From Patescibacteria group bacterium (GTDB lineage: Bacteria > Patescibacteriota > Minisyncoccia > Minisyncoccales > RBG-13-36-15): a stretch of DNA of 64,000 nt. Made by a program: the position numbers and the translations under genes. This document shows positions 29,265 to 61,730 of the stretch, piece after piece. Within the stretch, counting starts at the first letter, position 1; each line of letters starts with the position of its first letter. The notes beneath the pieces were generated by a model that saw only the letters and a program-made list of their open reading frames with translations, was not told the origin of the DNA and made no database searches. The stretch covers positions 9,559-73,558 of the forward strand of contig JAHCSE010000001.1 in the NCBI GenBank assembly GCA_018609195.1. Direction: 5' to 3'.

Positions 29265-29277
29265 TCGACCTTTTCCC
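29265..29277 (-). promoter_or_regulatory. AAAGGTCGA motif (site 1), ~45 nt upstream of the zinc-ribbon ORF
   Basis: + strand gatCGACCTTTTCC followed by imperfect CCCC...GGGG hairpin. Confidence 0.45.
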
Positions 29278-29391
29278 TTTTTGTTCGTGGATTCCTTTGC
29301 CCCGTATCATCCGCCCAGGGCGGATTGGTGTGGGGTACTTATCCACAGGTTTATTTTAGCTTAATTTAAGCTAAAGATATAGTCAAGCCCC

Positions 29392-30630
29392 TTAAACTAT
29401 CTGAACAGAGGAATTTTTTACTGCCTCTTTAACTAATTTTTCAATATTTAGTTTTTTTTCTGTTTTTAAAATATCCTCTACTCTAGATTTCGTTTCAGGA
29501 TGTTTTGGTAAGAATCGAGAACAGCAATCTTGATGAGGCAAAATGGAAACATCAAAAGTGCCAATTTCTTTGGCTTTTTGTATTATCTCTTCTTTATCTT
29601 GGGAAATTAAAGGCCTGAAAACCGGGAGTTCAATTGTCTCTTCAATTACTTTTATATTCTCCAAAGTCTGGGAAGCAACTTGTCCAATACTTTCTCCGGT
29701 GAAAATTCCCAAAGCCTTTTCTCTTTTTGCTATCTCCTCCGCTATCTTTAACATAAATCTCCGATAGAGAATTACTCTTAATTTTGCTTGAGTTTTCATT
29801 AAAATCTCCTTTTGAATGTCAGCAAAAGGAATTAAATAGAGTTTTGATTTTCCCTGATAATCGCTTAAAATTCTGACTATTTTTATTGCCTTTTCAATAG
29901 AGGCTTTAGAGGCGAAAGGGTAGGCATGGAAATGTAAAAAAATAACTTTTACTCCTCTTTTCATTGCCAAAAAAGAAGCTACTGGTGAATCAATTCCACC
30001 TGAGAGCAGAGAAACTGCCTTTCCACTGGCACTAATTGGTAATCCTCCCTGGCCTCTGATTTTCTCCAAATATAAAAAAGCATAGTTTTCAACGATTTCA
30101 ATAAAGCAAGTTACATCTGGATTTTCCAAATCAACTTTAATTTTCGCTTGCGAGCCTAAGCCTTGGCGAAGGCGGGGTTTTTGAGTCTTTAATTTTTTTA
30201 AAACGTACGCCCCTACCCGCTCGTTGATCTGTGGGGAAGTTAACGAGAATTCTTTTTTTGATCTTTTGGTTGCAATTTTAAAAGTTTTAAATTTTTTATC
30301 CCTTAAAAGCTCAAGGGCCTTCTCTTGTATATTTTTTATTTTTTGAGGACAGCTAACAGCTAAAGCAGAATAGGCGATACCAAAAACCTTCTTGATATTT
30401 TCCTTAATCTCTTTTTCGTTTTCCTTTCCTTTTTTAGTTAATTTCACAATTATTCTCCCAGAAATTCTTTTAACAAATTCAAAAGAAGCGGATCCTAGGC
30501 TCCGCTTAATATTCTCCACTAATTTTTTTTCAAAAAATCTTCTATTCTTTCCTTTCAATCCAATCTCATGATAATGGCAGATAACAAAATCCATCTTGTT
30601 TAGGATAACAAAAAAAATCTCTTGAGCCAA
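29392..30630 (-). CDS. thiI: tRNA 4-thiouridine synthase ThiI
   Basis: 412 aa; THUMP region plus LLSGGIDSPVA PP-loop. Confidence 0.85.
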   Translation of the reverse strand: MAQEIFFVILNKMDFVICHYHEIGLKGKNRRFFEKKLVENIKRSLGSASFEFVKRISGRIIVKLTKKGKENEKEIKENIKKVFGIAYSALAVSCPQKIKNIQEKALELLRDKKFKTFKIATKRSKKEFSLTSPQINERVGAYVLKKLKTQKPRLRQGLGSQAKIKVDLENPDVTCFIEIVENYAFLYLEKIRGQGGLPISASGKAVSLLSGGIDSPVASFLAMKRGVKVIFLHFHAYPFASKASIEKAIKIVRILSDYQGKSKLYLIPFADIQKEILMKTQAKLRVILYRRFMLKIAEEIAKREKALGIFTGESIGQVASQTLENIKVIEETIELPVFRPLISQDKEEIIQKAKEIGTFDVSILPHQDCCSRFLPKHPETKSRVEDILKTEKKLNIEKLVKEAVKNSSVQIV

Positions 30631-30662
30631 GAGTTATTTCGTTCTTTTTAATTTAAACTGCC

Positions 30663-30690
30663 CTTTTATAAAAGGGCAGTCTTTGTTACA
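30663..30690. terminator. Palindromic hairpin CTGCCCTTTTATAAAAGGGCAG
   Basis: Perfect 9-bp stem in the thiI-cobO spacer. Confidence 0.5.
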
Positions 30691-30731
30691 TTTATTGGTA
30701 AGCTCTCGATGGTTTTACTTTTTCGTACCAT

Positions 30732-31253
30732 TTAGTATTCAACCCCTATTTTTGCTAAAACCCCTTTTTTAAAAGGGTGTTTTATTTCTTTACATTCAGT
30801 TGCCAAATCAGCAATCTTAATTAACTCTTTGGGGGCACCTCTCCCAGTAAGAATTAAATCTACTTCAGAAGGAGCTTTTTTTAGAATTTCCAAGACTTCT
30901 CTTAATTTAATGAGATTTAAAGAGATGGCAACATTTACTTCATCTAAAATTATCAAGTCAAATTCTCCAGAATGAATCGCATTTTTGGCAATTTTTAAGG
31001 TCTCTCGGGCTGCAAGTTCGTGAACTTCTCGGGGAAGCTTGTCCCCCATTATCCCAACAAAACCTTCTCCGCCTTTTATCAATTGAAATTTTGGTTCTAG
31101 GCTTTGGATGGTCTTTTCCTCGCCAGTTGGCCATTTTTTACTTTTAATGAACTGAATCATCAAAACTCGCTTTCCCTGGCCAACTGCCCGAATTCCCTGG
31201 CCAATGGCAGCTGTCGTTTTCCCTTTTCCATTCCCAGTAAAAACAAAAATCAT
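30732..31253 (-). CDS. cobO: Cob(I)alamin adenosyltransferase (CobO/BtuR family)
   Basis: 173 aa; MIFVFTGNGKGKTTAAIGQ. Confidence 0.8.
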   Translation of the reverse strand: MIFVFTGNGKGKTTAAIGQGIRAVGQGKRVLMIQFIKSKKWPTGEEKTIQSLEPKFQLIKGGEGFVGIMGDKLPREVHELAARETLKIAKNAIHSGEFDLIILDEVNVAISLNLIKLREVLEILKKAPSEVDLILTGRGAPKELIKIADLATECKEIKHPFKKGVLAKIGVEY

Positions 31254-33553
31254 GTTTGAGGTATTTGAGCAGGTACACTCCCTTCTTCAGAGTCAAACTC
31301 ACACACACCTCCTACACAGGCTAACTCTTTGAAACCTGTGGTTTCATCTTCTTTCTCATAAACGATAATCTGGGCAAAGTCAACTTTTGGTAGTTTCTCT
31401 ACCAGTTCTTGATATTTTTCCTCATCGATTTCCTCGTAGGGAGCAAGTCGATAGACATGTTCTGCGCGTGGAATAAAAGAGAGCCCTCCTAAAATATTCC
31501 AGTTATCATAAAGCCAGTATGTAGCTTGAATCCACTCGTTCTCACCTACAGAAACGGTAACTGAGGGATTATGCTCGGTGAAATTTTCCTTCACCATCTT
31601 CCAGTGTCTAAGTTGATCGAGTGCTGTTAAATCATTTCGGAAAACAGCTCTCTCGGGAGATTTTACTGGAAACTCAAGCACAAAGGTCGTGGCCGAGTCC
31701 TCGAGCTGTCCAACTTCAGGATGATATGGAAATTTTTGTTCTTTCAACATTTGGAAAAGAGGGTCATTTGCCGATATACGAACTCGTCTAATATAAAAGG
31801 GAGAGTGTCGAGGGTGCATACCAGAGGCAGCATCCACAAGTTGAGATAATGTACCTGAAGGTTTGACACAGGTGATGCAGGTTGATTCCGAAATCCCAAA
31901 TTTCTTGGCATATTCACGATTGATTTCGAGCGATCTTTCCCGAAGTTTCCTGAGGGTTTCGGCTGATCTAGCTGCAGGACAATCCCACTGACCGGTTATC
32001 GAAATTCCTAAAAGCCTTTCCTCCTCGCAGTTTTGCTTCCATTCTTTTGAAAGATAAGAAAAATTGGTGAGAGTAGATTGATAGGTACCGAGCAAGGTGG
32101 CGATTTCGATCTTTTTCAGAAGAGATTCTTCAGTATCCTCGGGTCTGGCCACTACCTCGGTTAAATTGCAAAATTGTTTGGATCTTAATATAATTTCTCC
32201 GCATGGATTTGTGCCGGCAGTGGCCCAATATTTTTTAAATGTCTTCCAGCGCCTCTCTGGTAATTGATGTTTTAATCCTCCTCTATTAAAAATGCCTCTC
32301 TCGCCAGTTCCACTTTTAGCGAGCGCTAACCATTCTTCAAGAAACTGGATTGCGCTGGGTTTCTCATTATAAACCGCGGAGTTGTTGGCCATCGATCTCT
32401 GAGGATCAGTAACATAAAACTGGCCAGCTTTAGCTCCCCTCATATCTTCATCGTCGAGATCAGAAAGGGATATTAAAGCAGATCTTCGCACTCCACCCAT
32501 CACTACAATTTCCCCAATTTTGCAGATAATGTCATGAACATCAAGATTGGAGAGGCGTTTTCCTTGACGACTCAAAACTTTAGAGCGAACAAAATCTAAA
32601 AGTGATTTAAGTGCCCCAGGGCCTGAACTTCGACCTCCCATGGTCTTTAACTTTGATCCTGCTGGCCGAATCTTGGAGTAATCAAATATAATATCTTTAC
32701 CATTATACCAGGCTTTAAGTCCGATAGTTAACGCATCTCCCCATCCCTCTTTGCTGTCTAAAATTACATGGGCAGGTAATACTTGACCGGTCTGGCGTTT
32801 CACAATTGGTAGCTGCTGGACCGTTTGACTCTCCACTGAGAAGCCAACTCCTGTACCGCACATTAAAAGATATATAATTTCAGCAAAATCACGAAACTCG
32901 CTTGGTGCAATAAAAGAACAGTTATACACTGAGACATTGGAAGCCCTCGCTGCTTTCCCGGCAGCCCATAAAAGTCTCATCGATGGCATCACTTGATGAT
33001 TTAGGATTGCCTCTTTTATTTCCTGGTATTCGTTATCTCTTAACTTCTTGCCAAGATTCTCTCTCATGAAATCCACATAGCGATTGACCGTCTCAATCCA
33101 GGTTTCTCTCCTTCCCTCCTCTTCAATCCAGCGAGAATAAGTACGATAATAAATAAACTCAGCCAGCTCATTCCTGAAATATTTCCTACTCTTTCGCACA
33201 AGACCCTGCACCCGCTCGGGAATTAACTTCTTTTTTTCCCGAACTTCAGCTCTTGCTTGCCGATAGAGAATGTAAGCTTTTGCTGTCTTTGGAAAATCTC
33301 TCAGAATCAGAGTTTCTTCTACTAAGTCTTGAGTCCCCTCCACTTGAGGAATGTGAGGAGGAGGATAACGCTTCTCGAGTTTTTTCACTACCCTGTCTGA
33401 AATTCGAAGAGGATCTCGCGAAAGATTCCCTTCCCCAGCAGCTTGCATTGCTTTGGAGATTGCATTGGTAATTCGATTTTGGTCAAACGGAACAATATTG
33501 CCTTCTCTTTTTCGAATTTCTTTAATTTTATTTTTCAATTTTGGAAGCTGCAT
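31250..33553 (-). CDS. nrdJ: Class II (adenosylcobalamin-dependent) ribonucleotide reductase
   Basis: 767 aa; NPCGEI active-site loop, N-terminal ATP-cone-like region. Confidence 0.9.
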   Translation of the reverse strand: MQLPKLKNKIKEIRKREGNIVPFDQNRITNAISKAMQAAGEGNLSRDPLRISDRVVKKLEKRYPPPHIPQVEGTQDLVEETLILRDFPKTAKAYILYRQARAEVREKKKLIPERVQGLVRKSRKYFRNELAEFIYYRTYSRWIEEEGRRETWIETVNRYVDFMRENLGKKLRDNEYQEIKEAILNHQVMPSMRLLWAAGKAARASNVSVYNCSFIAPSEFRDFAEIIYLLMCGTGVGFSVESQTVQQLPIVKRQTGQVLPAHVILDSKEGWGDALTIGLKAWYNGKDIIFDYSKIRPAGSKLKTMGGRSSGPGALKSLLDFVRSKVLSRQGKRLSNLDVHDIICKIGEIVVMGGVRRSALISLSDLDDEDMRGAKAGQFYVTDPQRSMANNSAVYNEKPSAIQFLEEWLALAKSGTGERGIFNRGGLKHQLPERRWKTFKKYWATAGTNPCGEIILRSKQFCNLTEVVARPEDTEESLLKKIEIATLLGTYQSTLTNFSYLSKEWKQNCEEERLLGISITGQWDCPAARSAETLRKLRERSLEINREYAKKFGISESTCITCVKPSGTLSQLVDAASGMHPRHSPFYIRRVRISANDPLFQMLKEQKFPYHPEVGQLEDSATTFVLEFPVKSPERAVFRNDLTALDQLRHWKMVKENFTEHNPSVTVSVGENEWIQATYWLYDNWNILGGLSFIPRAEHVYRLAPYEEIDEEKYQELVEKLPKVDFAQIIVYEKEDETTGFKELACVGGVCEFDSEEGSVPAQIPQT

Positions 33554-34805: not shown

Positions 34806-34829
34806 AATTTAATAATTCCCAATTTTATA

Positions 34830-35297: not shown

Positions 35298-35308
35298 AGA
35301 AATAAAAA

Positions 35309-35605: not shown

Positions 35606-35679
35606 CTCGAGTGGGATGGAAACTCCCCAAGCTTAGTCGCTTGGGTTGGCCTTTCCCTTTGCTCGAAGGTAGAGGTTAA

Positions 35680-35830
35680 AAAAATGTGTCCTCCTCCGTT
35701 AAAACTTTGGAGGACATGGATGGCATTCTGACTTTCACAGTTACGGCATAGTCCCGGATTTCCTGCCCGCATCGCTATACGAAGTATTGCAGGCGGGTCA
35801 CCGGAGTTCCCCATCCGTTTTCAAAGTCCG
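35680..35830 (-). ncRNA. Candidate cobalamin riboswitch in the 5' leader of the B12-uptake/nrdJ gene string
   Basis: Minus-strand GGGGAACTCCGGTGACCCGCC ... GGAAATCCGGGACTATGCCGTAACTGTGA resembles GGGAAnnnGGTGa / AAnTCC / CCGCnACnGTnA cores; GC-rich and structured. Confidence 0.4.
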
Positions 35831-35915
35831 TTAATAAATAATATCAGCTTGCACGAAGTAGTGTCAAGAGAAAATCTGGGGATAACTGATTTAATTTGGA
35901 GAGATTTCTTAAAAT

Positions 35916-36494: not shown

Positions 36495-36508
36495 TTTTAA
36501 TTTTTATT

Positions 36509-36520
36509 GCGACCTTTTAC
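36509..36520 (-). promoter_or_regulatory. AAAGGTCGC motif (site 2), ~30 nt upstream of the peroxiredoxin
   Basis: gCGACCTTTTAC then hairpin CCCCGTTAGAAAT...ATTTCTAACGGGG (36521..36589). Confidence 0.45.
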
Positions 36521-36588
36521 CCCGTTAGAAATTTGTTCTTTCTACACTTTCTCCATTGTATTTGGTATTTCTAACGGGGTTTACTTTA

Positions 36589-37345: not shown

Positions 37346-37375
37346 AATCTTCGATCTATTTAAAGGAAAACTGAC

Positions 37376-37387
37376 CTCGACCTTTCC
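37376..37387 (-). promoter_or_regulatory. AAAGGTCGAG motif (site 3), ~32 nt upstream of sodN
   Basis: CTCGACCTTTCC then hairpin CCCCCCACCACTT...AAGTGGTGGGGGG (37388..37455). Confidence 0.45.
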
Positions 37388-37498
37388 CCCCACCACTTCT
37401 GCACTCGCTTTATGATACTTGTGCCAAAGGCACAAGTAGAAAAGTGGTGGGGGGTTTATCTAAGATTTTTATCATTTTGAATAAAAAAATCAAGTTTT

Positions 37499-39499: not shown

Positions 39500-40279
39500 C
39501 TACTGAACGGTTAATTCTCCTTTCATGCCGTTTGCCCGGTGGCCAGGAACTGAGCAGAAAAAGGTATAAGTTCCGGAGGCTGAAGCAGTAAATTCAATCG
39601 TATCTGTCTTGCCAGAACCAATAGTTTTTGTTCCTACTCCTAATTCAGTAATTTTAAAATTGTGGATAATACTGCCATCGTTCCTGAAAGTTATTTTCAG
39701 TTGATCCCCAGCTGAAACAGTGATGGAAGCTGGGCTAAGACTAAATTCAGTACCACTGACGGTAATCTCTCTCACTATCGATGCTGGAGCAATACTCTTT
39801 GTAACCGTCATTGACTTTACCACAATCTTATCATCAACTTTCACTGGTACATCATCTCCTGGAAACTCATAGATGTCATCTCCATCATCAATATGGATCA
39901 TGGCAAAAAGGAAATTCTCTCCTTCTTGAAGCTCACTTACCACAACAGAAATGTTATTGTAGGTTCCAGATTCAACGAAATCAGAATTCCCAAGAACTTT
40001 CCCTGGTTTTCCATCTTCTGAAAGGTGAATCACAACATAGCCTGGGTCTTTAAAGCTTACCTCTTGGATAGTCACTTGATCTTCTGTAACCTGCTGATCC
40101 TGAACAGTAATCGCAGCCTGGGTTACTGGTGGTAGGAGTACTGTAGGTAGTGCTTCTGGTGGCTGATATCCTCCTTTCAATAGAAAATAGCCACCAATAA
40201 TAACCACCAAAATAATCACTATCACCCCTATCCACTTACACCCGCACATCTTCTCTGATTTACAAATTAGACATTTCAT
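39500..40279 (-). CDS. Membrane-anchored cupredoxin (plastocyanin/azurin-type blue copper protein)
   Basis: C-terminal FFCSVPGHRANGMKG (Cys-x2-His-x4-Met); paralog of 59724..60359. Confidence 0.7.
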   Translation of the reverse strand: MKCLICKSEKMCGCKWIGVIVIILVVIIGGYFLLKGGYQPPEALPTVLLPPVTQAAITVQDQQVTEDQVTIQEVSFKDPGYVVIHLSEDGKPGKVLGNSDFVESGTYNNISVVVSELQEGENFLFAMIHIDDGDDIYEFPGDDVPVKVDDKIVVKSMTVTKSIAPASIVREITVSGTEFSLSPASITVSAGDQLKITFRNDGSIIHNFKITELGVGTKTIGSGKTDTIEFTASASGTYTFFCSVPGHRANGMKGELTVQ

Positions 40280-40310: not shown

Positions 40311-40322
40311 CTCGACCTTTTA
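40311..40322 (-). promoter_or_regulatory. AAAGGTCGAG motif (site 4), ~37 nt upstream of the cupredoxin
   Basis: CTCGACCTTTTAC. Confidence 0.45.
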
Positions 40323-49562: not shown

Positions 49563-49721
49563 TTATGCACATCCACCGCAGCCCCCTTTTTCTTTATGAG
49601 TATGTCCGCACTTCGAACATTTTTCCTGACGCTCCGCTCCACAGCAGGTCCCAGGGCTTTCAGTAGACTCTGAACCACAGCCGGGACAAATATGTGTTTT
49701 TTCGGTTGTTTCTTCTGCCAT
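49563..49721 (-). CDS. Small Cys-rich metallothionein-like protein (52 aa)
   Basis: Hand-translated MAEETTEKTHICPGCGSESTESPGTCCGAERQEKCSKCGHTHKEKGGCGGCA; not in ORF track. Confidence 0.45.
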   Translation of the reverse strand: MAEETTEKTHICPGCGSESTESPGTCCGAERQEKCSKCGHTHKEKGGCGGCA

Positions 49722-49758: not shown

Positions 49759-49769
49759 TCGACCTTTTC
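49759..49769 (-). promoter_or_regulatory. AAAGGTCGA motif (site 5), ~40 nt upstream of the metallothionein-like ORF
   Basis: TCGACCTTTTC. Confidence 0.45.
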
Positions 49770-50834: not shown

Positions 50835-50844
50835 TGGAATCTTT

Positions 50845-51188: not shown

Positions 51189-51338
51189 TTAAGCTGCGCA
51201 ACACTCTTTGGCGTACTTACCCGAACCACATCCACAAACCTTTTCTCTTGATGCACCACAACACGTTCCTCCTTCTTCACCCTCGGGAGGTGTACTGCCA
51301 CAGCTTTGGCATTTGTACTGGTCTTTTTCTTCAGCCAT
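51189..51338 (-). CDS. Small Cys-rich metallothionein-like protein (49 aa), paralog of 49563..49721
   Basis: Hand-translated MAEEKDQYKCQSCGSTPPEGEEGGTCCGASREKVCGCGSGKYAKECCAA. Confidence 0.45.
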   Translation of the reverse strand: MAEEKDQYKCQSCGSTPPEGEEGGTCCGASREKVCGCGSGKYAKECCAA

Positions 51339-51372: not shown

Positions 51373-51383
51373 TCGACCTTTCC
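51373..51383 (-). promoter_or_regulatory. AAAGGTCGA motif (site 6), ~37 nt upstream of the second metallothionein-like ORF
   Basis: TCGACCTTTCC then 90-nt hairpin CCCCGTAGAG...CTACGGGG. Confidence 0.45.
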
Positions 51384-51465
51384 CCGTAGAGAAATTTTGA
51401 CATCCGCCTTTGGCGGAAATAGTGTTTTGTTTAACAAAACACCAGTCAAAATTCTTCTACGGGGT

Positions 51466-51780
51466 TTATTTTAATAATCCTTTAATTTTTTCAGCAAGGG
51501 AGTAGCAAGCCATTCTCCCAATCTTCACCCTTCTTACCAAACCTGCTCTCTCAAGTAAACTCAATTGATGGGAAACAGCGCTTATACTAATATGTAAAAT
51601 TTGTGAAAAGTCAGTAGGACACAATTTTTTATAGTGTTTGAGCAAAAAAATAATTTTAAGGCGGGTGGGGTCAGAACAAAGATAATAAAAACTGCTTTTT
51701 TCTTTAATTTTTTGAGAAAGTTTTGCTAATTCTCTCTGGGAATTTTTGATTTCTCTTCCCTTAAGAAGCATTAATTGCAT
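51466..51780 (-). CDS. ArsR/SmtB-family metalloregulator
   Basis: 104 aa; DPTRLKIIFLL...ISAVSHQLSLLERAGLV wHTH. Confidence 0.8.
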   Translation of the reverse strand: MQLMLLKGREIKNSQRELAKLSQKIKEKSSFYYLCSDPTRLKIIFLLKHYKKLCPTDFSQILHISISAVSHQLSLLERAGLVRRVKIGRMACYSLAEKIKGLLK

Positions 51781-51941: not shown

Positions 51942-52799
51942 CTACGGCAGAATTTGAAGTAGCCGTTCGCTTAACGTGATTACAATATTAAAGGCACCCA
52001 TAAGGATGAGGAAAAAGCCTCCTAATAACCTGATAGGTTTCATTTGCCTAACCAATGTTTGTGTCAAGGATTCTCTCGCAAATCCAGCTATAACTGAAAG
52101 TGATATCATGAGCAAAGCCATAACAGTACTTGCAAGTATAAAGACAGTTAAAGCAGAGGATAACCCGCCGCCACTCAAGGCAAAAAGAGAAAGTCCACCA
52201 ACTAAGGGAGCTACACAACCTATCCCAGCTAAAGTATATCCAAATCCAAACATAAAAAATTTACCAAACATTCCGCGGCCTCTTTTCGATATTTCAGTGC
52301 CAAGATGTTCCACTTTTCCTAAACTGACGAATACTTTATTGGTTACCAATGCCAACCCAAGTCCTATCAACAAAACACCAATGATTCGTCTAAACCATAG
52401 CAGTGCCGTTGTTCCTGGTTTAATAAAATTAATAAATGTTTCTCCCAAAAGTCCGATGACAATTCCGAAAAGAATCATAAACGCTAAAAGACCTAATGCA
52501 GCATAGAATCCATTACGAATCAGTTTTCCTCGAGAAAGTACTCGCCCTCCCCCACTCACCACCTCTGTTTGATAAACCAAATAAGATGGGAGGATCGGTA
52601 AAACACACGGATTAAAGAAAGCCGCTATCCCGACACCTAAGCCAGCGACAATAAGCGTAACCAAGGATATATCCGATGGTTTCATAAAACTTTTTGTAGC
52701 CGAAAAGAGGTAAAATCCGATAACTGCTATAACAATAAAAAACACTGCTAAGCCGATGTAAAGTAGAACAGGATGAGTTTTTGTCTGAGTATTATTCAT
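51942..52799 (-). CDS. CcdA/DsbD-family membrane protein (paralog)
   Basis: 285 aa; FNPCVLPILPSY, GIGCVAPLVGG. Confidence 0.75.
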   Translation of the reverse strand: MNNTQTKTHPVLLYIGLAVFFIVIAVIGFYLFSATKSFMKPSDISLVTLIVAGLGVGIAAFFNPCVLPILPSYLVYQTEVVSGGGRVLSRGKLIRNGFYAALGLLAFMILFGIVIGLLGETFINFIKPGTTALLWFRRIIGVLLIGLGLALVTNKVFVSLGKVEHLGTEISKRGRGMFGKFFMFGFGYTLAGIGCVAPLVGGLSLFALSGGGLSSALTVFILASTVMALLMISLSVIAGFARESLTQTLVRQMKPIRLLGGFFLILMGAFNIVITLSERLLQILP

Positions 52800-52844: not shown

Positions 52845-52855
52845 TCGACCTTTGA
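52845..52855 (-). promoter_or_regulatory. AAAGGTCGAG motif (site 7), ~45 nt upstream of CcdA 51942..52799
   Basis: CTCGACCTTTG. Confidence 0.4.
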
Positions 52856-52896
52856 TTTCTTTTTCTTTAACTAATGCCCTCGTGGTTATAATAGGT

Positions 52897-53882: not shown

Positions 53883-53905
53883 AGAGGTTTAATAATAGTG
53901 TAAGT

Positions 53906-54200
53906 CTACTACATCCCCCAAATAAAAAATATAGTAAACATCCACATGCTTGTTAAAACTAATATTCCGCCTGCAACCTTTTTCATTGTTTCTGTTTTTC
54001 CAATCATTGTTTTGAAAAAAGTGTGCTTACCCTGTCCGATAAATACGGTAACTGCAATAAGAAATAGGGCTTGAAATTTAAAAACCCGCAGCTCGTTCCA
54101 TGACTTCAGCCACTTGTTCTTTTGTAATGTTTTTTGCTATTTTGATTACACTTTCGCAGCAGGTGCAATCTTTTATATGGATTATAGTTAGCGTTGTCAT
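53906..54200 (-). pseudogene. Gene remnant: ~170-nt duplicate of the 3' end of the CcdA-like gene 55387..56214, plus a 40-codon HMA-like ORF
   Basis: 53906..54075 about 93% identical to 55387..55560 with a 26-nt deletion; upstream ORF MTTLTIIHIKDCTCCESVIKIAK... Confidence 0.55.
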
Positions 54201-54235
54201 AATATGTGTTTAATTAGTTATTATTTTTCTATACA

Positions 54236-55357: not shown

Positions 55358-55386
55358 TTATTTTTCTACAAACGTTAGAAAGATTA

Positions 55387-56214
55387 CTACATTCCCCATA
55401 TAAAGAATATAGCAAACATCCACATACTTGTTAAGACTAATATTCCGCCTGCGACCTTTTTCATTGTTTCTGTTTTTCCAATCATTGTTTTGAAAAACGT
55501 GTGCTTTCCCTGCCCGATAAATACGGTAACTGCAATAAGAAATAATGCTTGAGCAAGACTAAAAATCAGAAAGCTTGAAATACTGACTAAAAATTCTCCA
55601 CCCACAAGAGGGAAGAATACCAATGGTAAAAAGATGGGCAAGAAACACATCAATCCTCCAGCCCCATATACAATGCCAAAGCCAAAAAGATTAACGCTTT
55701 GTGAACGCCCACGACTCATTTTATTAACTTTATCTCTGAAGGAAGAAAGAAAATTAATATTGATAGATTTGCCACGCAAAAAAGCAATGCCGATAAACAA
55801 AATGAGAATTGCAACGGCAAATTTCAATTGGCTAGCATAGGAAGCCAGAAATGTCCCGATAGTCGCAAAAAGTAAACCAAGGACAATAAAGAAGCTGAAT
55901 ACACCGAGTGAGGCAATAATGCCAAGCTTGATACTTCTTTTAATTGGCGAGTGTTTTTCTTCTCCCTCGTCCATTCCAAGATAAAAAGACATATAAGCCG
56001 GAAGCACTCCTAAGGAACAGGGTCCAAAATTCACAATAAGCCCGGCAATGAAAGCAAAGCCCAAAATACCAAGCGTGCTAAAGGCAGCAAGATTGCTTGT
56101 CTGGGGAATAATAATCCCATACAGAACTTTCCAGCCAAAGATACTGGCAACCACAAAAATAGTAAGTGCTGCCAATATCCAAATGCTATAAGTTACTATT
56201 TTTGACTTAATCAT
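55387..56214 (-). CDS. CcdA/DsbD-family membrane protein (start at internal MIKSK; ORF extends to 56286)
   Basis: NFGPCSLGVLPAY, GGLMCFLPIF. Confidence 0.7.
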   Translation of the reverse strand: MIKSKIVTYSIWILAALTIFVVASIFGWKVLYGIIIPQTSNLAAFSTLGILGFAFIAGLIVNFGPCSLGVLPAYMSFYLGMDEGEEKHSPIKRSIKLGIIASLGVFSFFIVLGLLFATIGTFLASYASQLKFAVAILILFIGIAFLRGKSININFLSSFRDKVNKMSRGRSQSVNLFGFGIVYGAGGLMCFLPIFLPLVFFPLVGGEFLVSISSFLIFSLAQALFLIAVTVFIGQGKHTFFKTMIGKTETMKKVAGGILVLTSMWMFAIFFIWGM

Positions 56215-56218
56215 AAAA

Positions 56219-57076
56219 TTAAGGAAAAAGAATTTTTGTAAATGGAGTGATGAAAACAGAAGAAAGAATAAGGAAAATTCCGACAATAAGAAGTAGAACG
56301 CCGCTTACTCTTTTGATAGCAACGGTTGATTGGCGAAGACTTTGGAGTAAAGTTTCTTTGGAAAAAGCAATGAGCAGTGATACAACAATCATCAGAAGTG
56401 CCATTACTAATGAATAAACCACAAAAGCCAGAAACGCATCTGAGAAGCCACCTTGAGATAGTGCAAATACAATGAGCCCACCCATGATTGGGCCTCCACA
56501 ACCGATACCAAGTAGTGGATAGCCAAAACCATAGCCATAGAGTTTTCCAAATCCCGCTTGTTTTTCTTCCGGCAATGATTTCGGATGCCATAAATGCCCT
56601 AATCTCCCAAAAGGATTCCCTCTCCCTGTGGCGTGGCTAAAACCAAGATACAGAAGAAACACTCCTACAATGCCACGCAGCCATCTTACTGGTATGCTTG
56701 GGTTTTCTCCTGCAAGCCCTAATGATTTCCCAAAACCAGCTCCTAAAATACCAATGCCAATACCGAGTAAAAGATTAAAGGTGATAAGACCTAATGCTGC
56801 TGCTAATCCAGAGAGGAGTAGTTTCGTTGCTGACTTTTTACTTTCACCTTCTTTTGTTGTGTAGTATTGAGCAAAGTAGGCAGGAAGCAATGGAAAAGCA
56901 CAAGGGTTAAAGAAACTTGCCACTCCTGCAACTACCGCAACAAATAGTAACCCAAAAGCAGCACCTCCCTTCATTATGTTGATAACAAACCAGATAAATA
57001 ACCCATACCCGCCTGCTACCAAAACAAAAATAATAAAAAAAAGAAAAATGAGCTTGCTCCAATCTTTTAACGACAT
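56219..57076 (-). CDS. CcdA/DsbD-family membrane protein (paralog of 51942..52799)
   Basis: 285 aa; FNPCAFPLLPAY, GIGCGGPIMGG. Confidence 0.75.
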   Translation of the reverse strand: MSLKDWSKLIFLFFIIFVLVAGGYGLFIWFVINIMKGGAAFGLLFVAVVAGVASFFNPCAFPLLPAYFAQYYTTKEGESKKSATKLLLSGLAAALGLITFNLLLGIGIGILGAGFGKSLGLAGENPSIPVRWLRGIVGVFLLYLGFSHATGRGNPFGRLGHLWHPKSLPEEKQAGFGKLYGYGFGYPLLGIGCGGPIMGGLIVFALSQGGFSDAFLAFVVYSLVMALLMIVVSLLIAFSKETLLQSLRQSTVAIKRVSGVLLLIVGIFLILSSVFITPFTKILFP

Positions 57077-57369
57077 AGCTTTTTGCAGAATTTGTTAATA
57101 TGCTTATCCATTAACCCAAGAAGCGGCTTTGTTGTTTCTTTGTTTAGAGTATAAATGCGTTCTTTTCCATTTCTTTCCATGCTTACAAAACCACATTTTT
57201 GAAGCCGTCCTAAGTGATGCGAGACAAGACTTTGCTCATAGCCAAGTTTCTTGGCAATAGCAGTTACATTTAGCTTTCCTTTTCGAAGCAAATGGATAAT
57301 ATCCCACCTTGTTTTATTCCCCAGGGTTTCAAAAAAGATTTTATATGGTTCGCGAATAATTCTCTTCAT
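57067..57369 (-). CDS. ArsR/SmtB-family regulator
   Basis: 100 aa; wHTH IAKKLGYEQSLVSHHLGRLQKCGFV. Confidence 0.8.
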   Translation of the reverse strand: MKRIIREPYKIFFETLGNKTRWDIIHLLRKGKLNVTAIAKKLGYEQSLVSHHLGRLQKCGFVSMERNGKERIYTLNKETTKPLLGLMDKHINKFCKKLCR

Positions 57370-57453
57370 AGTATGAATTATATTTCATATGAAACTTATG
57401 TCAAGTGTATTTTTCCACAAGAGTTCTCATTGTTTTGTTTTGTATAGAGATAT

Positions 57454-57476
57454 AAAAAACCGCCTTCTCGACGATT
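57454..57476 (-). terminator. Conserved terminator hairpin repeat (copy 5)
   Basis: AAAAAACCGCCTTCTCGACGATT. Confidence 0.55.
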
Positions 57477-57514
57477 GATTAAGATTTCAGCCTACCCTGT
57501 TGCTCCCTATTTCT

Positions 57515-57700
57515 TTAGCTCTCTGACTTCTCAAGGAAAGCAGGTTCTTTCACAGCGTGCTCGGTAATCTCAAGGTTACAGCTTTTGTGTTCCAAGCACC
57601 AAGCCTCGCATTTCTCTGCCCACTCTTTTTCTCTATAAGTAAAACCGCACTCTCTGCACTGGTAATACGTTTTATTGTTTTGAGTAATAACTTTTGGCAT
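57515..57700 (-). CDS. Small Cys-rich protein (61 aa)
   Basis: YYQCRECGFTYREKEWAEKCEAWCLEHKSCNLEI; paralog of 52897..53064. Confidence 0.5.
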   Translation of the reverse strand: MPKVITQNNKTYYQCRECGFTYREKEWAEKCEAWCLEHKSCNLEITEHAVKEPAFLEKSES

Positions 57701-57729
57701 AAATCACTTATATAAAAAGCAAAAGTAAA

Positions 57730-58107
57730 TTATTCATTACTTCTTCTCCAAAATCTAAAATTTTCTGGCCAGGCACTAATCGCTAAAGCCAAGGCTGCAG
57801 TAAATAATCCAATATCGCGAACTGTAATTGTATTAATACCAGAGACTGTAAGAACGGTGACTAAGTGCAAAGCTCCAAGAAGTGCTGCTAACCAAGTGAA
57901 GTAATCTATTAAAAGCAAAGCACCAATAATAATATCAAAAAGGGCTGTTCCAATCATTACTCCTTTTAAGGAGATTGGTAAAAGATTAGCTGCCCAGGGT
58001 TGCACGTAGCCTCCCCACCCTACTGGGTCCCGTAAAATGAGAATGCCAATCCACAAGAAAGTAATGGCCATTCCCACTCGTAATATGTGAAATGCACTTG
58101 ATTTCAT
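57730..58107 (-). CDS. DoxX-family membrane protein
   Basis: 125 aa, 4 TM. Confidence 0.55.
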   Translation of the reverse strand: MKSSAFHILRVGMAITFLWIGILILRDPVGWGGYVQPWAANLLPISLKGVMIGTALFDIIIGALLLIDYFTWLAALLGALHLVTVLTVSGINTITVRDIGLFTAALALAISAWPENFRFWRRSNE

Positions 58108-58175
58108 AAATAATACTAGATTTTAAAGAATATGAACTTTATCTTCGATAAAGACCGTATAATTTTCGTTTCGCT

Positions 58176-58589
58176 TCAAATTATAAGCTCGCTAATTAAT
58201 ACAATAAGTCCCATAGCAAAAACGGTAAAGGCAGACAGTACACACCAAAAACACCAAGCTTTGATAACCCGCCATTGAAGATAGGTCAAAATGATTGATA
58301 TAACTACTCCAGCTCCAATAAGAATCTTTACCAACATATCCCAAAAGATCAGTGGTTCAACCCCAATTATCAAAAAAGCAGTGAAAAGGGAAATTAAAAC
58401 ATAAAATGTAAATCCCAAAACTTCATTATGAATACCAATAATTTTATTGTACTTACTTCCCAAGACTTCATAGCACTCCTCGCCGAAAATACAGACAGGT
58501 TCCTCTTTTGCTATTCTTTTACGAATTAAATAAACTGTCTCTGAAATACCTATGGCGGCGAGTGTGAAAAGAAGGGCATGTGGAGTCAT
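58176..58589 (-). CDS. Vitamin K epoxide reductase (VKOR)-family membrane oxidoreductase
   Basis: 137 aa; loop Cys pair CIFGEEC and TM active site CFWC. Confidence 0.7.
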   Translation of the reverse strand: MTPHALLFTLAAIGISETVYLIRKRIAKEEPVCIFGEECYEVLGSKYNKIIGIHNEVLGFTFYVLISLFTAFLIIGVEPLIFWDMLVKILIGAGVVISIILTYLQWRVIKAWCFWCVLSAFTVFAMGLIVLISELII

Positions 58590-58594
58590 GGTTG

Positions 58595-58810
58595 TTATTT
58601 TCGCTCTTGATCACGGTGGATGAGCGTCCCTACACCAAAGGCAATGGAAACAAGTAATAATGTTATTGCGTCATTGTAAAAATCTCCTTGAGACAATCCA
58701 AGAAAAGTGCCATACGTTCTCACAATCCAAGCGCCAAAGAGCGATAATATGCCTAAAATTCCAGAAATCATGGCAACGTGGTGTAAAATTGGTGACCATT
58801 TCATATTCAT
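58595..58810 (-). CDS. Small membrane protein
   Basis: 71 aa, 2 TM. Confidence 0.35.
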   Translation of the reverse strand: MNMKWSPILHHVAMISGILGILSLFGAWIVRTYGTFLGLSQGDFYNDAITLLLVSIAFGVGTLIHRDQERK

Positions 58811-58917
58811 AGAATGTATCTAATAAATTTACGTTTAGGCCTGCCTGCCCCGTAGGGAAGCGAAGCTTCTCCTTCGGGGCTTAATCTTACAGGCCATTTA
58901 TTGTTCAATAGGGTCTC

Positions 58918-59703
58918 CTATTTTTCATTTCCCTCGTTCTTGTTCTCTTCTGGTAATTTTTTGCCAAATCTTTCAAAGGCTCTAAGAATTTCCAAAGGCA
59001 CAGCAAAAATAATCGTATTTGATTTATCAGAGCTTATATCATTGATTGATTGAAGAGTTCTTAAATGAAGGGCTCCCTTAGCCTCAGATAGAGTCCGGGC
59101 AGCTTTTGCCAGATTACCGGAGGCAATTACTTCTCCTGCGGCCTTAATAATTATTGCTCTTTTTTCCCTTTCTGCTTCAGCTTGCTTTCCAATTACCCTC
59201 TTCATTCCTTCTGGTAAAGTTATATCTTTTAATTCCACATTGAGAACTTTAATTCCCCAAGGATCGGTAGCCTTATCTATAATGCTTCTTATGTTTTCTG
59301 AAACCCTGTCTCTTTGAGAAAGGAGGCCATCTAAATCTACTTGACCTACGGCATTTCGCATTGTTGTTTGGGCTAACTGAGAAATGGCAAAGAAAAAATC
59401 CTCTACTTCCAAAACTGCCTTATCAGCTTCTTGGACTTTATAATAGATAACAGCATTAACCCTAACTGAGATATTATCCTTGGTAATTGCCTCCTGATCT
59501 GGTACATCTACCGCCTTTACTCTTAAATCTATTTTTCGATAAAACTGAACAATAGGCAAAACTATTCTCCAGCCAGGTTCCATCAAACCGATATACTTAC
59601 CCAGCATAAACTTAACTCCCTTTTGATACTGATTAATCTGCTTAATGGAGGTTAAAATAATCAAGACAATTATTGCTAAAATTACCCAACCTATATTTGG
59701 CAT
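58918..59703 (-). CDS. SPFH/band-7 (stomatin/prohibitin-like) protein
   Basis: 261 aa; N-terminal TM then SPFH core. Confidence 0.8.
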   Translation of the reverse strand: MPNIGWVILAIIVLIILTSIKQINQYQKGVKFMLGKYIGLMEPGWRIVLPIVQFYRKIDLRVKAVDVPDQEAITKDNISVRVNAVIYYKVQEADKAVLEVEDFFFAISQLAQTTMRNAVGQVDLDGLLSQRDRVSENIRSIIDKATDPWGIKVLNVELKDITLPEGMKRVIGKQAEAEREKRAIIIKAAGEVIASGNLAKAARTLSEAKGALHLRTLQSINDISSDKSNTIIFAVPLEILRAFERFGKKLPEENKNEGNEK

Positions 59704-59723
59704 ATTTTTTTGAAGTTAATTAA

Positions 59724-60359
59724 TTATTCGACCTTTAAGGAACCCAGCATTCCATTGGCGCGGTGACCAGGGATAGCACAATAATACTCAAAGGTACCTA
59801 GCTTATCGGGTATGAAAGAGACAGTTTTCGATCCAGTACCATAGTAACCACCAGATAGTGAGTAGTTAACTCCTAGTTCATCGATAGTAAAAGTATGGGT
59901 GCCAGAGATGGAAAAGTTAATCTTAAGTTCTTGTCCTTTTTGAACCGTTGCTGAATTTGGAATAAACGCAAAGTTGCGTGCCGTCATTGAAATCTCTTTA
60001 GTTGGAAGTGGCTCAGGAGTAGGTTCAGGTTCAGGGGTTGGCTCAGGCTCTGGAGTAGGTTCTTGCATAGGTTCAGGTTCAGACTCTGGTTCTGGGGTTG
60101 GTTCGGGTGTAATCATCTGTTCTTCTGTCAGTGCTGGAGCGATTGCCTCTTCTTCATCTGGGAGAGACACCTCCTCGGGTGGACTAGGAATTTGTTCTCC
60201 TGGGGCGACTTTTTCTGGTGCTAGAGGCCCGGTTGGAGTTGGAGTTGGGGCTTGATAACCTCCTTTTAAAATAAAATATCCACCCACAATGACTGCAAAC
60301 GCCACCGCTGCAATAATAATACCCCACGTTACTTTATCCATATATTCCCTACCTTTCAA
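59724..60359 (-). CDS. Membrane-anchored cupredoxin with a Pro/Glu/Thr-rich repeat linker
   Basis: YYCAIPGHRANGMLG copper site; linker (PEPT/PEPE) repeats. Confidence 0.7.
   Translation of the reverse strand: MKGREYMDKVTWGIIIAAVAFAVIVGGYFILKGGYQAPTPTPTGPLAPEKVAPGEQIPSPPEEVSLPDEEEAIAPALTEEQMITPEPTPEPESEPEPMQEPTPEPEPTPEPEPTPEPLPTKEISMTARNFAFIPNSATVQKGQELKINFSISGTHTFTIDELGVNYSLSGGYYGTGSKTVSFIPDKLGTFEYYCAIPGHRANGMLGSLKVE
59728..59739 (-). promoter_or_regulatory. AAAGGTCGAA motif (site 8), ~27 nt upstream of the SPFH gene
   Basis: TTCGACCTTTAA. Confidence 0.4.
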
Positions 60360-60891
60360 TAAATTCTTTTATTTTATCTTCATCAAAACCATCTAAAATT
60401 TCTCTTTTGTTAAGCTTGGTTAAGATAATTTTCCCATCATAATTATTGGGAGCTAAATAAACATTGTCTGGGTATTGTTTTACTAAAGCTGTGATCTTTT
60501 CTATTAAACCTAATTTACACTTAAACTTATCACAGTTGTATTGAATGATAACTCCTGGTTTGCCTCTGCCATCGGCATGCTCTAACATGTGTTTTTGGAT
60601 GACTTCTGGTATAGGTTGCGAAAGAATGTGAGCTGGGGGTATTGCTTCTGAATGATTAAGGAGTGTCGTTGGAGGTAAATCAGGACTGCTGGTTAAAAAC
60701 CATCCTAAACCAAAAATTCCTCCTCCTATCACCAAGACAATTAAGCTTAAATTTAGTGTCTTTTTAAATCGCAGTCTCCGTCTTCCCCCCTCTTGTTCTT
60801 TTTGTCTAAGTTTTCTTTTGAGAAGTCGACGCTCTTTTTTTGTCAGTTGTTGATCCTCAACGAGAACCTTGTTTTTCTCTAATTCCTCCAT
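60349..60891 (-). CDS. Membrane-anchored hypothetical protein (DUF3105-like?)
   Basis: 180 aa; HMLEHADGRGKPGVIIQY. Confidence 0.45.
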   Translation of the reverse strand: MEELEKNKVLVEDQQLTKKERRLLKRKLRQKEQEGGRRRLRFKKTLNLSLIVLVIGGGIFGLGWFLTSSPDLPPTTLLNHSEAIPPAHILSQPIPEVIQKHMLEHADGRGKPGVIIQYNCDKFKCKLGLIEKITALVKQYPDNVYLAPNNYDGKIILTKLNKREILDGFDEDKIKEFIER

Positions 60892-60917
60892 TTTCCTTTA
60901 AGTAAAACCGGATCCTT

Positions 60918-61613
60918 TTATTTCAGATCAGCCAATGCCTGATCTACTGCGGCCTTGAAGGTTGAGTAAGGAACTGCTCCAGGAATGGATCGCCCATTTA
61001 CAAAACTTCCCGGAGTCCCTCTTACTCCTGTCTTTATCCCCTCTTGATAATCAGCGGCTACCTTATCTTTGTATTTTCTGGAAGAAAAACAACTATTAAA
61101 CTGATCTATATTAAGCCCGAGATTTCCTGCTAATTCTTGATAAAGTGCTTTTCCCAATCTGGATTGATTTTCAAATGCGCCATCTACAAACTGCCAAAAT
61201 CCATCATTTCCCGTTTGTTCCCAGACGCACTCGGATGCTTCAGCTGCAGGGGTTGCCTGAGGATGAATTTGGTCTAAAGGAAAGTGCTTGTACACCCAAC
61301 GGACTTGACCGGAATACTCTGCCAAAATCTGCTTCAGAGTGGGATGAAGTCTATCGCAAAATGGACACTCAAGATCAGAATATTCAACAATAGTTACGGG
61401 GGCCTCAAAATCTCCTCGGATATGATCTTTCTCGGAAATAGTAAGCGTTCCTCCTGGACTTCCTTTTTGAGACTCTGTTTGAGAAATATCAGCCTGCGAT
61501 TTTTGAGTTAATCCAGTGGATTGTTGAGGGCTTTTTGTATAAATCAAAGCTCCAACAATCAGTAAAGCACCTACAATTATTGAGACTGGTAAATATAATT
61601 TTTCTCCTCTCAT
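60918..61613 (-). CDS. DsbA-family thiol:disulfide oxidoreductase
   Basis: 231 aa; signal anchor; SDLECPFCDRLH. Confidence 0.75.
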   Translation of the reverse strand: MRGEKLYLPVSIIVGALLIVGALIYTKSPQQSTGLTQKSQADISQTESQKGSPGGTLTISEKDHIRGDFEAPVTIVEYSDLECPFCDRLHPTLKQILAEYSGQVRWVYKHFPLDQIHPQATPAAEASECVWEQTGNDGFWQFVDGAFENQSRLGKALYQELAGNLGLNIDQFNSCFSSRKYKDKVAADYQEGIKTGVRGTPGSFVNGRSIPGAVPYSTFKAAVDQALADLK

Positions 61614-61637
61614 AGATTTATTTGAATAAAGTATAAT

Positions 61638-61649
61638 CCGACCTTTTCC
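61638..61649 (-). promoter_or_regulatory. AAAGGTCGG motif (site 9), ~27 nt upstream of dsbA-like gene, adjacent to hairpin
   Basis: CCGACCTTTTCC then CCCCCACCACTTTT...AAAAGTGGTGGGGG (61650..61715). Confidence 0.45.
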
Positions 61650-61730
61650 CCCACCACTTTTTGATTCGCTTCGCGAATGAGTCCATGAATATATCCAAAA
61701 GTGGTGGGGGATTTTTATCTCATATCAACT

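Follow-up and report, generated by a model that had tools for sequence, protein, structure and literature searches.

A strictly sense-oriented nine-nucleotide box ahead of redox and metal genes in Patescibacteria, and its relation to neighbouring palindromic hairpins

Short signals carried in transcribed leaders include the boxA sites of rrn and λ operons (NusB-NusE) and the ops element of RfaH. These are strictly oriented, non-palindromic words of 9 to 12 nucleotides (nt) which lie at variable distances from promoters and mark functionally coherent sets of operons, and in rrn leaders a hairpin of variable sequence (boxB) stands directly beside the conserved box. The Patescibacteria, or candidate phyla radiation (CPR), are uncultivated and have tiny genomes with very few recognisable regulators. 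To our knowledge, and as far as the literature can be searched, neither a regulon nor a cis-regulatory code is on record for this group; searches of the literature for the motif described here and for CPR promoter motifs found nothing relevant. We analysed a 64,000-nt stretch of a Patescibacteria group bacterium (contig JAHCSE010000001.1 of assembly GCA_018609195.1, positions 9,559 to 73,558 of the forward strand; the window), in which a 9-mer, AAAGGTCGA (AAAGGUCGAAAA as single-stranded RNA), recurs upstream of genes for redox and metal proteins. This 9-mer, here called the box, resembles boxA and ops in each of the above respects, including the hairpins beside some of its copies, and is unrelated in sequence to both boxA (GCUCUUUAACAA) and ops (GGCGGTAGNNTG). 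Its main interest is that a regulon has yet to be described in this very large uncultivated group.

Seven exact copies of the 9-mer were present in the window, all on the minus strand, against an expectation of 0.52, and none of 100 dinucleotide shuffles reached seven copies. As nearly all genes of the window lie on the minus strand, this is the sense orientation. One-base variants at 36509 (AAAGGTCGC) and 61638 (AAAGGTCGG) brought the total to nine intergenic sites with the consensus AAA[G/A]GTCGA, often followed by AAA, which end 24 to 45 nt before an ATG. All nine box-marked gene starts lie between 29 and 62 kb, where 9 of about 19 intergenic regions carry the box, versus none of about 17 before 29 kb. 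An earlier note on this DNA had reported nine motif sites upstream of redox or metal genes and had not seen the motif upstream of ribosomal-protein or housekeeping genes in the first 22 kb; both observations were borne out, the second over the first 29 kb, in which no box-marked start was found. The nine sites are as follows.

29265-29273, minus strand: box AAAGGTCGA, 40 nt 5' of the ATG of the DUF5679 Zn-ribbon gene (29072-29224)
36509-36517, minus strand: box variant AAAGGTCGC, 29 nt 5' of the peroxiredoxin ATG (36470)
37377-37385, minus strand: box AAAGGTCGA, 31 nt 5' of the sodN ATG (37336)
40312-40320, minus strand: box AAAGGTCGA, 32 nt 5' of the DUF7282-cupredoxin gene (39500-40279); kept in the related locus L001 at 7003
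49759-49767, minus strand: box AAAGGTCGA, 37 nt 5' of a 52-amino-acid (aa) Cys-rich open reading frame (ORF; 49563-49721) and 13 nt past the DUF3179 stop
51373-51381, minus strand: box AAAGGTCGA, 34 nt 5' of a 49-aa Cys-rich ORF (51189-51338), downstream of an ArsR gene (51466-51780)
52845-52853, minus strand: box AAAGGTCGA, 45 nt 5' of a divergent CcdA paralog (51942-52799)
59728-59736, minus strand: box AAAGGTCGA, 24 nt 5' of the SPFH gene (58918-59703)
61638-61646, minus strand: box variant AAAGGTCGG, 24 nt 5' of a DsbA-like gene (60918-61613)

The box at 59728-59736 overlaps the 3' end of a cupredoxin ORF (59724-60359), whose stop lies just beyond the box (GAATAA). A tenth match, AAAAGGTCGC at 55451-55460 (minus strand), was rejected as a box site, as it is coding sequence inside a CcdA-like ORF (55387-56286). 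Noncoding DNA at 53883-54235 duplicates the 3' part of this same gene, carries a box-like AAAAGGTTGC at 53973 and is probably a pseudogene remnant. A DNA uptake sequence or Chi-like word was also considered for the box and rejected, with no copies in the first 29 kb or in ribosomal-protein operons and with nearly all copies placed just 5' of gene starts.

The identities given to the nine genes by the earlier note were confirmed by Pfam and BLASTP. Pfam matches were obtained for the DUF5679 Zn ribbon (50 aa), the AhpC/TSA peroxiredoxin, Sod_Ni, DUF7282 with cupredoxin, SPFH and the DsbA-like protein. The 285-aa protein that follows the box at 52845 had no Pfam match, and its BLASTP match to CcdA (E = 5e-11), with both Cys motifs retained, identifies it by sequence as a divergent CcdA paralog. 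The two ORFs described as metallothionein-like encode Cys-rich proteins of 49 to 52 aa without a Pfam family. The surrounding redox and metal neighbourhood contains four CcdA paralogs, TlpA-like redoxins, thioredoxins, VKOR and DoxX, together with two cupredoxins, an HMA protein, CutA, oxidative pentose-phosphate genes and two ArsR regulators. Relatives of the window SodN placed it in the Patescibacteria, an exact-protein lookup found no identical record, and the closest reference, at 86% identity, lies on JACZRI010000002.1 (L001). Gene order is mostly kept between L001 and the window. A Wildermuthbacteria contig similarly clusters DsbA, VKOR, CcdA, DoxX, an Mrr-like gene and DUF5679. This synteny and clustering indicated a conserved neighbourhood rather than a recently assembled mobile island.

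Conservation of the box was examined in CPR loci (numbered with the prefix L) sampled as the neighbourhoods of three query genes, SodN, DUF3179 and DUF5679. In 648 kb of nonredundant loci, the exact 9-mer occurred 25 times on the majority-gene strand and once on the other strand, where about 3 copies per strand, or about 6 on both, were expected. The box recurred in at least 10 other CPR lineages, before genes for small Cys-rich proteins, DoxX, glutaredoxin, SodN and SDR and above all before DUF5679. The L001 orthologs of the cupredoxin, sodN and Zn-ribbon genes each have the exact 9-mer in front of them, in intergenic flanks diverged past alignment. The sodN box is thus matched in L001, and a one-mismatch variant is present at sodN in L003; no box was found near sodN in the more distant loci L002 and L004-L009. 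Homologs of DUF5679 gave 230 matches, 72 to 88% identical and all from Patescibacteria-type sources, and the box preceded this gene in 8 of 9 lineages, including Nealsonbacteria and Wildermuthbacteria (the copy at 29265-29273 is kept in L001, L161, L169, L172, L176, L179 and L180). The L181 and Sungbacteria loci were without a box, with DUF5679 retained in L181. Within the DUF5679 loci, boxes were also found before SDR orthologs (L161 and L172), a DUF5320 gene and a membrane-protein gene. The Zn-finger gene of L179 lies on the minus strand and its box does likewise, and the ribosomal-protein operons of L161, L169, L172 and L176 held no copies.

In metagenome loci fetched with DUF3179, the genes preceded by the box encode DoxX (two cases), a glutaredoxin, a TlpA-like redoxin and members of two small-protein families rich in Cys or Cys/His. 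The box stood directly 3' of the DUF3179 stop in L087, L088, L091 and L108, and the order ArsR-box-Cys-rich gene recurred in L146. In L086 and L087, the box and leader go with the Cys/His-rich gene despite a different gene upstream. The same motif was therefore present at orthologous and linked genes of several genomes, in diverged flanks and with a sense bias, as expected from the regulon proposed in the earlier note. From this comparison, the box looks like a cis element that defines a thiol-disulfide, reactive-oxygen and metal regulon common to many Parcubacteria-type Patescibacteria.

The two Cys-rich families (49 to 61 aa, no Pfam family) have the signatures CxxCGS...GTCCGAxR...CxxC and C(M/V)ACSCPCExHKEHNH. 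They are regularly associated with the box and at times lie directly 3' of an ArsR gene, recalling smtB-smtA; members were seen in the window (49563-49721 and 51189-51338) and in L140, L146, L086-L090, L089 and L108.

A set of 33 curated sites was used to define the box and its geometry. GTCG was invariant, positions 1, 2 and 4 changed only between A and G, and position 9 was free. Such purine-only variation would fit base pairing with U, or a reader for which any purine suffices. Orientation was sense at all 33 sites. The box lay 24 to 48 nt from the ATG at 31 of the 33 (median, 32 nt); both exceptions were in L001 and had obvious hairpin or short-repeat insertions. An insertion of about 60 nt in L001 starts 3 nt past a conserved box, and among close relatives indels of 1 to 3 nt alter the length of the spacer that separates the box from the start-proximal block, both blocks being kept. 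In several cases (window 59728, L161:5398, L179, L172, L089a and L146) the box overlapped or lay inside the 3' end of the upstream ORF, leaving no room for a terminator and promoter.

The distance between the box and a recognisable σ70 promoter ranged from about 0 to about 95 nt. In L161, a terminator (204-227) and an 11/12 promoter (TTGACA-17-TATTAT, 259-287) lie immediately upstream of the box at 294, which places this box at about +1. Upstream of DUF5679, a promoter block, CTTGACT-N9-GCTTAAATTAAGC-TAAAAT...TGTGRAT, was near-invariant in five lineages, with the box 20 to 95 nt further downstream. In the window this promoter is as follows.

29353-29386, minus strand: σ70-type promoter of the DUF5679 gene, with TTGACT at 29381-29386, a 17-nt spacer and TAAGCT at 29358-29363; about 95 nt upstream of the box

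These promoters, upstream at varying distances, indicated that the box is positioned by the start codon and not by the promoter. The -10 region of the DUF5679 promoter is overlapped by a perfect 6-1-6 palindrome, GCTTAAATTAAGC (29359-29371, minus strand), which was found in five lineages (the window, L001, L161:9912-9924, L169 and L176) and was absent from the rest of the window and from all other loci. A dimeric repressor probably uses it as an operator, one distinct from the box.

No position outside the 9-mer was informative when sites were anchored on either the box or the ATG, no -35 or -10 partner occurred at a fixed spacing to the box, and -10-like hexamers were scattered 0 to 35 nt from it. 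The earlier note had described a TAAAAT-like -10 often following by 4 to 9 nt. TAAAA starting in this interval was indeed enriched (9 of 22 sites versus 2.8 expected; P = 0.0006), but it was seen at only 4 of the 13 sites new to this analysis and a generic TA...T hexamer was not enriched, so the description of a -10 held only in part.

Several other roles were rejected. As a σ70 -35 or -10 element, the box has no conserved partner and canonical promoters are found upstream of it. For an extracytoplasmic function (ECF) or other alternative sigma factor with GTCGA as the -10, nothing is conserved 16 to 17 nt upstream, where hairpin sites present a variable stem; without such an element, a two-part ECF promoter with the box as its -10 is excluded. 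A canonical promoter was found upstream of only some boxes, and as promoter-like counts equal the shuffle expectation, such counts say little in general. A second motif, TAATCAAT, failed as a -10 since its spacing to the box shifts by indels even between close relatives. A role as a Shine-Dalgarno (SD) sequence or in translation coupling was rejected on the near absence of SD sequences from the window genes and the 24- to 48-nt distance to the ATG, and leaderless transcripts on the absence of a -10 at -12 to -7 from the ATG and the genome-wide commonness of T at -1.

Five of the boxes in the window are accompanied by hairpins, which the earlier note had described as fused to the box and 60 to 90 nt long.

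29286-29347, minus strand: composite hairpin H1, with an inner CCCC..GGGG element at 29300-29335 plus CAAAGG; 25 nt upstream of the box
36520-36579, minus strand: hairpin H2, stem type A (CCCCGTTAGAAAT); abuts the peroxiredoxin box
37386-37454, minus strand: hairpin H3, stem type B (CCCCCCACCACTT); abuts the sodN box and is absent at the orthologous L001 site
51382-51464, minus strand: hairpin H4, stem type C; three-way, with two inner mini-hairpins, spanning from the ArsR stop to the box
61648-61710, minus strand: hairpin H5, stem type B; abuts the box and is homologous to H3

This description fits H2 to H5, which abut the box at 0 to 1 nt, are 60 to 83 nt long and have folding z-scores of -5.5 to -9.8, but not H1, which lies 25 nt away. 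The hairpins are followed on the coding strand by AAAGG and not by a U-tract, as the earlier note had stated. H3 and H5 are homologous copies with common 14-nt termini and an alignable interior. At sodN, L001 reads AATAAA directly followed by AAAGGTCGA, where the window reads GATAAA, the 69-nt hairpin and then AAAGGTCGA. The inner element of H1 sits in the loop of an older GTGGAT/ATCCAC hairpin, and this outer stem is intact in L001, where the inner CCCC element is missing. The type A stem, CCCCGTTAGAAAT, recurred in L089 with a 72-nt loop and a box before a Cys/His-rich gene and in L092-L094 without a box, the loops being unrelated. The sodN leader of a Liptonbacteria locus (L003) has a small CCCCGCC...GGCGGGG hairpin 2 nt before its variant box. 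The flanks have the form TAAA, hairpin, (T)AAAG, with A-runs that leave a target duplication ambiguous.

Taken over all curated sites, 6 of 33 boxes had an abutting hairpin and 27 had none, and 5 of the 11 CCCC-clamped hairpins found in about 660 kb abutted a box on the sense strand, far above chance. From the homologous copies, the box-free copies, the empty sodN site in L001, the nesting of H1 and the TAAA-like flanks, the hairpins behave, on sequence evidence, as dispersed palindromic repeats separate from the box signal, of the kind represented by repetitive extragenic palindromes (REPs) and miniature inverted-repeat transposable elements (MITEs). Their site of insertion or retention would be the A-run that forms the 5' edge of the box; the flanks are compatible with a target duplication of TAAA, by which this A-run would be regenerated. 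Their preference for the box might reflect targeted insertion or selective retention, for example as an insulator or mRNA stabiliser.

Two further hairpin arrangements were noted. A sixth CCCC...GGGG hairpin, without a box, lies at 58848-58879 (minus strand) between the SPFH gene and a 71-aa membrane ORF, and is nested in an outer GGCCTG/CAGGCC stem with the same element-in-older-loop design as H1. In L092 (965-1050 and 4261-4346; also in L093 and L094), two mutually inverted 86-nt CCCCGCA...TGCGGGG hairpins flank a 3.2-kb segment, an arrangement that by analogy is like a composite transposon. The boundary of an integron cassette (attC) was also considered and rejected: a palindrome is present at 5 of 9 boundaries, GTTRRRY cores are absent, gene order is as in L001 and the sodN hairpin is absent there.

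On balance, we favour the box as a strand-specific cis-regulatory element of the transcribed 5' leader or intercistronic spacer that acts on the transcript. What suggests this level of action is that the register to the start codon is kept and the promoter ignored, that the orientation is strictly sense, that the box can overlap upstream ORFs and that insertions are tolerated on either side. The box would be transcribed within the leader or spacer about 24 to 48 nt ahead of the start, a protein or small RNA would recognise it as single-stranded RNA, and the bound factor would control translation or stability of the downstream cistron. The regulon would comprise genes for SodN, peroxiredoxin, DsbA/VKOR/CcdA/TlpA/DoxX, cupredoxins, small Cys-rich proteins, glutaredoxin, SDR and DUF5679. 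The enrichment, strand bias, conservation across genomes, geometry and separability of box and hairpin are shown by the sequences; the RNA-level action, the physiological trigger and the identity of the factor acting in trans are inferred. Several points weigh against this account. All transcription start sites are predicted, and leaders of 83% A+T yield -10-like hexamers by chance, with promoter-like counts at the shuffle expectation. The TAAAA enrichment 4 to 9 nt past the box could stem from internal promoters in which the box takes part and TAAAA supplies the -10. Neither a trans factor nor an anti-box RNA was found in the sampled loci, and an antisense RNA acting in trans was rejected, as the sole antisense copy (L095) lies in a coding region. 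The predicted single-strandedness of the box in its leaders was unremarkable (0.26 to 0.78). No box or hairpin matched Rfam 15 at E <= 1, permissive mode included; the only window matches at threshold were tRNA-Pro and an AdoCbl-II riboswitch. Some functional coupling of hairpin and box is possible, given the 5 of 11 abutting copies. Finally, the extent of the regulon and the absence of the box elsewhere are drawn from the limited sequence of three query-gene neighbourhoods.

A serious rival is a roadblock on the DNA, with the box as an operator located at +1 to +95. If a dedicated repressor or activator bound double-stranded DNA at or just past promoters, compact internal ones included, the regulon-like distribution and the conservation would fit equally well. 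The L161:294 box, at about +1 to +10, stands in the classical position of a repressor site, -10-like hexamers lie 3 to 14 nt upstream or 1 to 9 nt downstream of many boxes, and spacers with a box lack the canonical TTGACA which is found in other spacers of the island. We nevertheless consider an operator somewhat unlikely: the strict orientation (33 of 33, and 25:1 in bulk) would be unusual, the site is asymmetric with no second half-site, the distance to the promoter runs from 0 to about 95 nt while that to the ATG is constrained, L001 tolerates its insertion of about 60 nt 3 nt past the box, and no single regulator gene co-occurs. The earlier suggestion of an alternative-sigma box was not supported by the comparison. 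A core promoter element, read by an alternative sigma or by an activator that replaces the -35 and followed by a TAAAAT-like hexamer 4 to 9 nt downstream, would account for the 9 of 22 TAAAA sites and for boxes that head apparent transcription units without TTGACA, and an ECF-type sigma gene does lie two genes from DUF5679 in L180. It is made quite improbable by a spacing to the putative -10 that spans 1 to 17 nt without a peak of positional information and by indels of 1 to 3 nt between box and downstream blocks in close relatives. Moreover, a box ending 4 to 9 nt before a -10 occupies the promoter spacer and not the -35, its minimum of 24 nt to the ATG leaves too little room for a -35 position, and the canonical promoters seen at L161:294 and, in five lineages, at DUF5679 are 5' of the box.

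The hairpins bear on two further explanations. The earlier note had also raised a small promoter-carrying mobile unit spread within the island. On such a reading, hairpin and box together would be a MITE with a promoter or signal directed outward, and boxes without hairpins would be its remnants. The 5 of 11 CCCC-clamped hairpins directly followed by a box, the homology of H3 and H5, the type A stem common to three genomes, flanks resembling a TAAA target duplication and the small GC hairpin just before the sodN box of the outgroup L003 are what such a unit would leave. It became very improbable on the finding that box and hairpin are separable: 27 of 33 boxes, including that of sodN in L001, are free of hairpins, boxes are kept at orthologs across lineages in unrelated flanks, type A hairpins occur without a box in L092-L094, the inner element of H1 lies 25 nt from its box inside an older loop that is intact in L001, and gene order around the boxes is syntenic with L001. 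That the box is a by-product of generic intrinsic terminators, or of chance in AT-rich spacers, is an explanation to which we give practically no credence. On the other strand TTTAT follows the hairpins, which gives them the look of terminators. On the coding strand they were rejected as intrinsic terminators, since AAAGG takes the place of a U-tract; most boxes are hairpin-free, true terminators occur without a box (hairpin and U-tract at 29047, 57476 and 63569 and in the ATCGCCAAGAAGGCGG family), and the enrichment and cross-genome conservation are far above chance.

If the box is an element of the transcript, as we favour, DUF5679 is a candidate for its reader, because it is the sole gene that carries the box nearly everywhere and regulators often carry their own signal. 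It encodes a highly basic 50-aa Cys4 Zn-ribbon protein with a confident all-β structural model (predicted local distance difference test [pLDDT] score, 88). Fold matches of the model were weak (E > 0.3; SH3-like, Cren7, eIF5A and ZPR1) and are compatible with nucleic acid binding without being diagnostic of it; a sequence search of the PDB gave no match and literature searches on DUF5679 gave nothing relevant. The box might be an RNA (or single-strand) operator of DUF5679, with oxidation or metal loss at the Zn(Cys)4 site releasing the leaders and switching on thiol and metal defence post-transcriptionally, but we regard this specific proposal as rather unlikely. Were it true, ultra-small bacteria would have in DUF5679 a minimal redox switch of a new type. 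The Wildermuthbacteria leader, of 53% GC (L180:5397-5435), has GACCTTT just 5' of the DUF5679 ATG. This complements AAAGGTC of the box 23 nt upstream, and a hairpin that the two could form might sequester the start region; the pairing was not seen in AT-rich lineages.

ArsR proteins are unlikely to bind the box, judging from their sites. A 12-2-12 inverted repeat of the ArsR/SmtB type was not found at the box, which is asymmetric and has no inverted partner, and the ArsR genes have σ70 promoters of their own with palindromes, TTTCATATGAAA and TATTTAAATA, that are unlike the box and are candidate ArsR operators. Among the sampled loci, ArsR, CsoR and Rrf2 genes were each present in only some, and no single regulator gene co-occurred with the box. 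The ArsR gene at 57067-57369 (minus strand) has a TTGACA-16-TATAAT promoter (57377-57404) with the 12-bp palindrome TTTCATATGAAA in its spacer, and only 7 nt from the -10 to the ATG, the geometry of a leaderless transcript.

Other features of the window and the sampled loci were recorded alongside. Ordinary σ70 promoters include the perfect TTGACA-16-TATAAT at 57404 and others at 35867, 51826 and 62244. The AdoCbl-II riboswitch (35713-35827, minus strand; Rfam, 39.1 bits) lies behind a TTGACA-18-TATTAT promoter and heads an operon for a B12-dependent ribonucleotide reductase, a corrinoid adenosyltransferase, DUF6580 and DUF4430. A canonical terminator, AATCGCCAAGAAGGCGGTTTTTT, is present in four near-identical copies on the minus strand (26220-26338, 26705-26822, 27480-27841 and 57370-57514) as a repeated terminator module. 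In L165 (7227-8462), a 411-aa ORF with a faint LAGLIDADG match lies between SufBD and UDG; it is present in only one of two otherwise near-identical contigs (compare L161:8482) and may be a mobile homing-endonuclease gene. Spacers of the str/S10 ribosomal-protein operon are unusually long, up to 462 nt, versus short ones in the relatives L161 and L172, and are filled by a GC-rich repeat family with GCAGAAAGGGGTCGGGGAAACTGGGTGTTTCCCCGTATAGGAAAACAG right after the stop, followed by mini-hairpins. Short tandem heptamer-like repeats, ATTCGTA, AACCATTTA and CCTAGAA/CCTAAAAC (AATCACT in L179), stand directly 5' of starts and may be SD-independent translation leader signals in SD-poor genomes.

14114-14194, 14924-15080, 15675-16009, 17659-18120, 20257-20619 and 21502-21671, and inverted at 63347-63583: GC-rich repeat family of the str/S10 spacers
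21502-21540, 25326-25364, 6901-6975, 16355-16400 and 17659-17700 of the window, L179:5953-6000 and L001:18121-18216: tandem heptamer-like repeats

As an easily scanned 9-mer, the box offers a handle on the oxygen and metal stress response of Patescibacteria. It also points to uncharacterised genes that would share its control (DUF5679, DUF5320, DUF7282 and two Cys-rich families) and to a candidate regulator. For annotation, the hairpins are a caution that striking structures next to a motif can be independent repeats.

In gene content (thioredoxin-fold proteins, peroxiredoxin, superoxide dismutase and metallothionein-like proteins), the marked set overlaps the regulons of σR-RsrA (GGAAT-N18-GTT), Spx, PerR/OxyR and SmtB/ArsR, and the window shares with smtB-smtA an ArsR gene directly upstream of a Cys-rich gene. 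Unlike the sites of σR, Spx, PerR/OxyR and SmtB, the box is asymmetric and single, lies downstream of promoters and has no fixed promoter geometry, and it is not known to match any described consensus of σR, Spx, PerR, OxyR, SmtB, CsoR, CtsR or Spo0A. Its core, GGTCGAA, loosely resembles the heptamer A/GGTCAAA that is directly repeated in the CtsR operator (one insertion) and the Spo0A 0A box TGTCGAA (one mismatch). The box is single copy and not tandem and has no clp or sporulation targets, and neither CtsR nor Spo0A is known in CPR.

The hairpins have their own counterparts in REPs, bacterial interspersed mosaic elements (BIMEs) and MITEs such as Correia elements. Like these, they are highly stable intergenic palindromes of 36 to 98 nt, in DNA that is probably transcribed, with conserved terminal inverted repeats and variable interiors, apparently polymorphic in presence at orthologous sites and flanked by short A-rich direct repeats. 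They differ in their very low copy number in the sampled sequence, in their marked preference for the box as a neighbour, in the location of some copies inside older hairpin loops and in that no REP-associated tyrosine transposase (RAYT) or insertion sequence (IS) transposase was seen in the sampled sequence.

The box itself departs from boxA and ops in keeping within a set range of distances from the start codon, something that antitermination does not require, in that many of its targets are single short genes and not long operons, and in that no Nus- or RfaH-type factor is linked to it here. From the CA-rich targets of GcvB and the GGA targets of CsrA it differs in being neither CA-rich nor a GGA in a loop, and its host is nearly free of SD sequences, so that the translational context is different. 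With these two systems it shares the form of a short single-stranded sense motif tens of nt 5' of starts, spread over many mRNAs with one physiological theme and tolerant of insertions around the motif.

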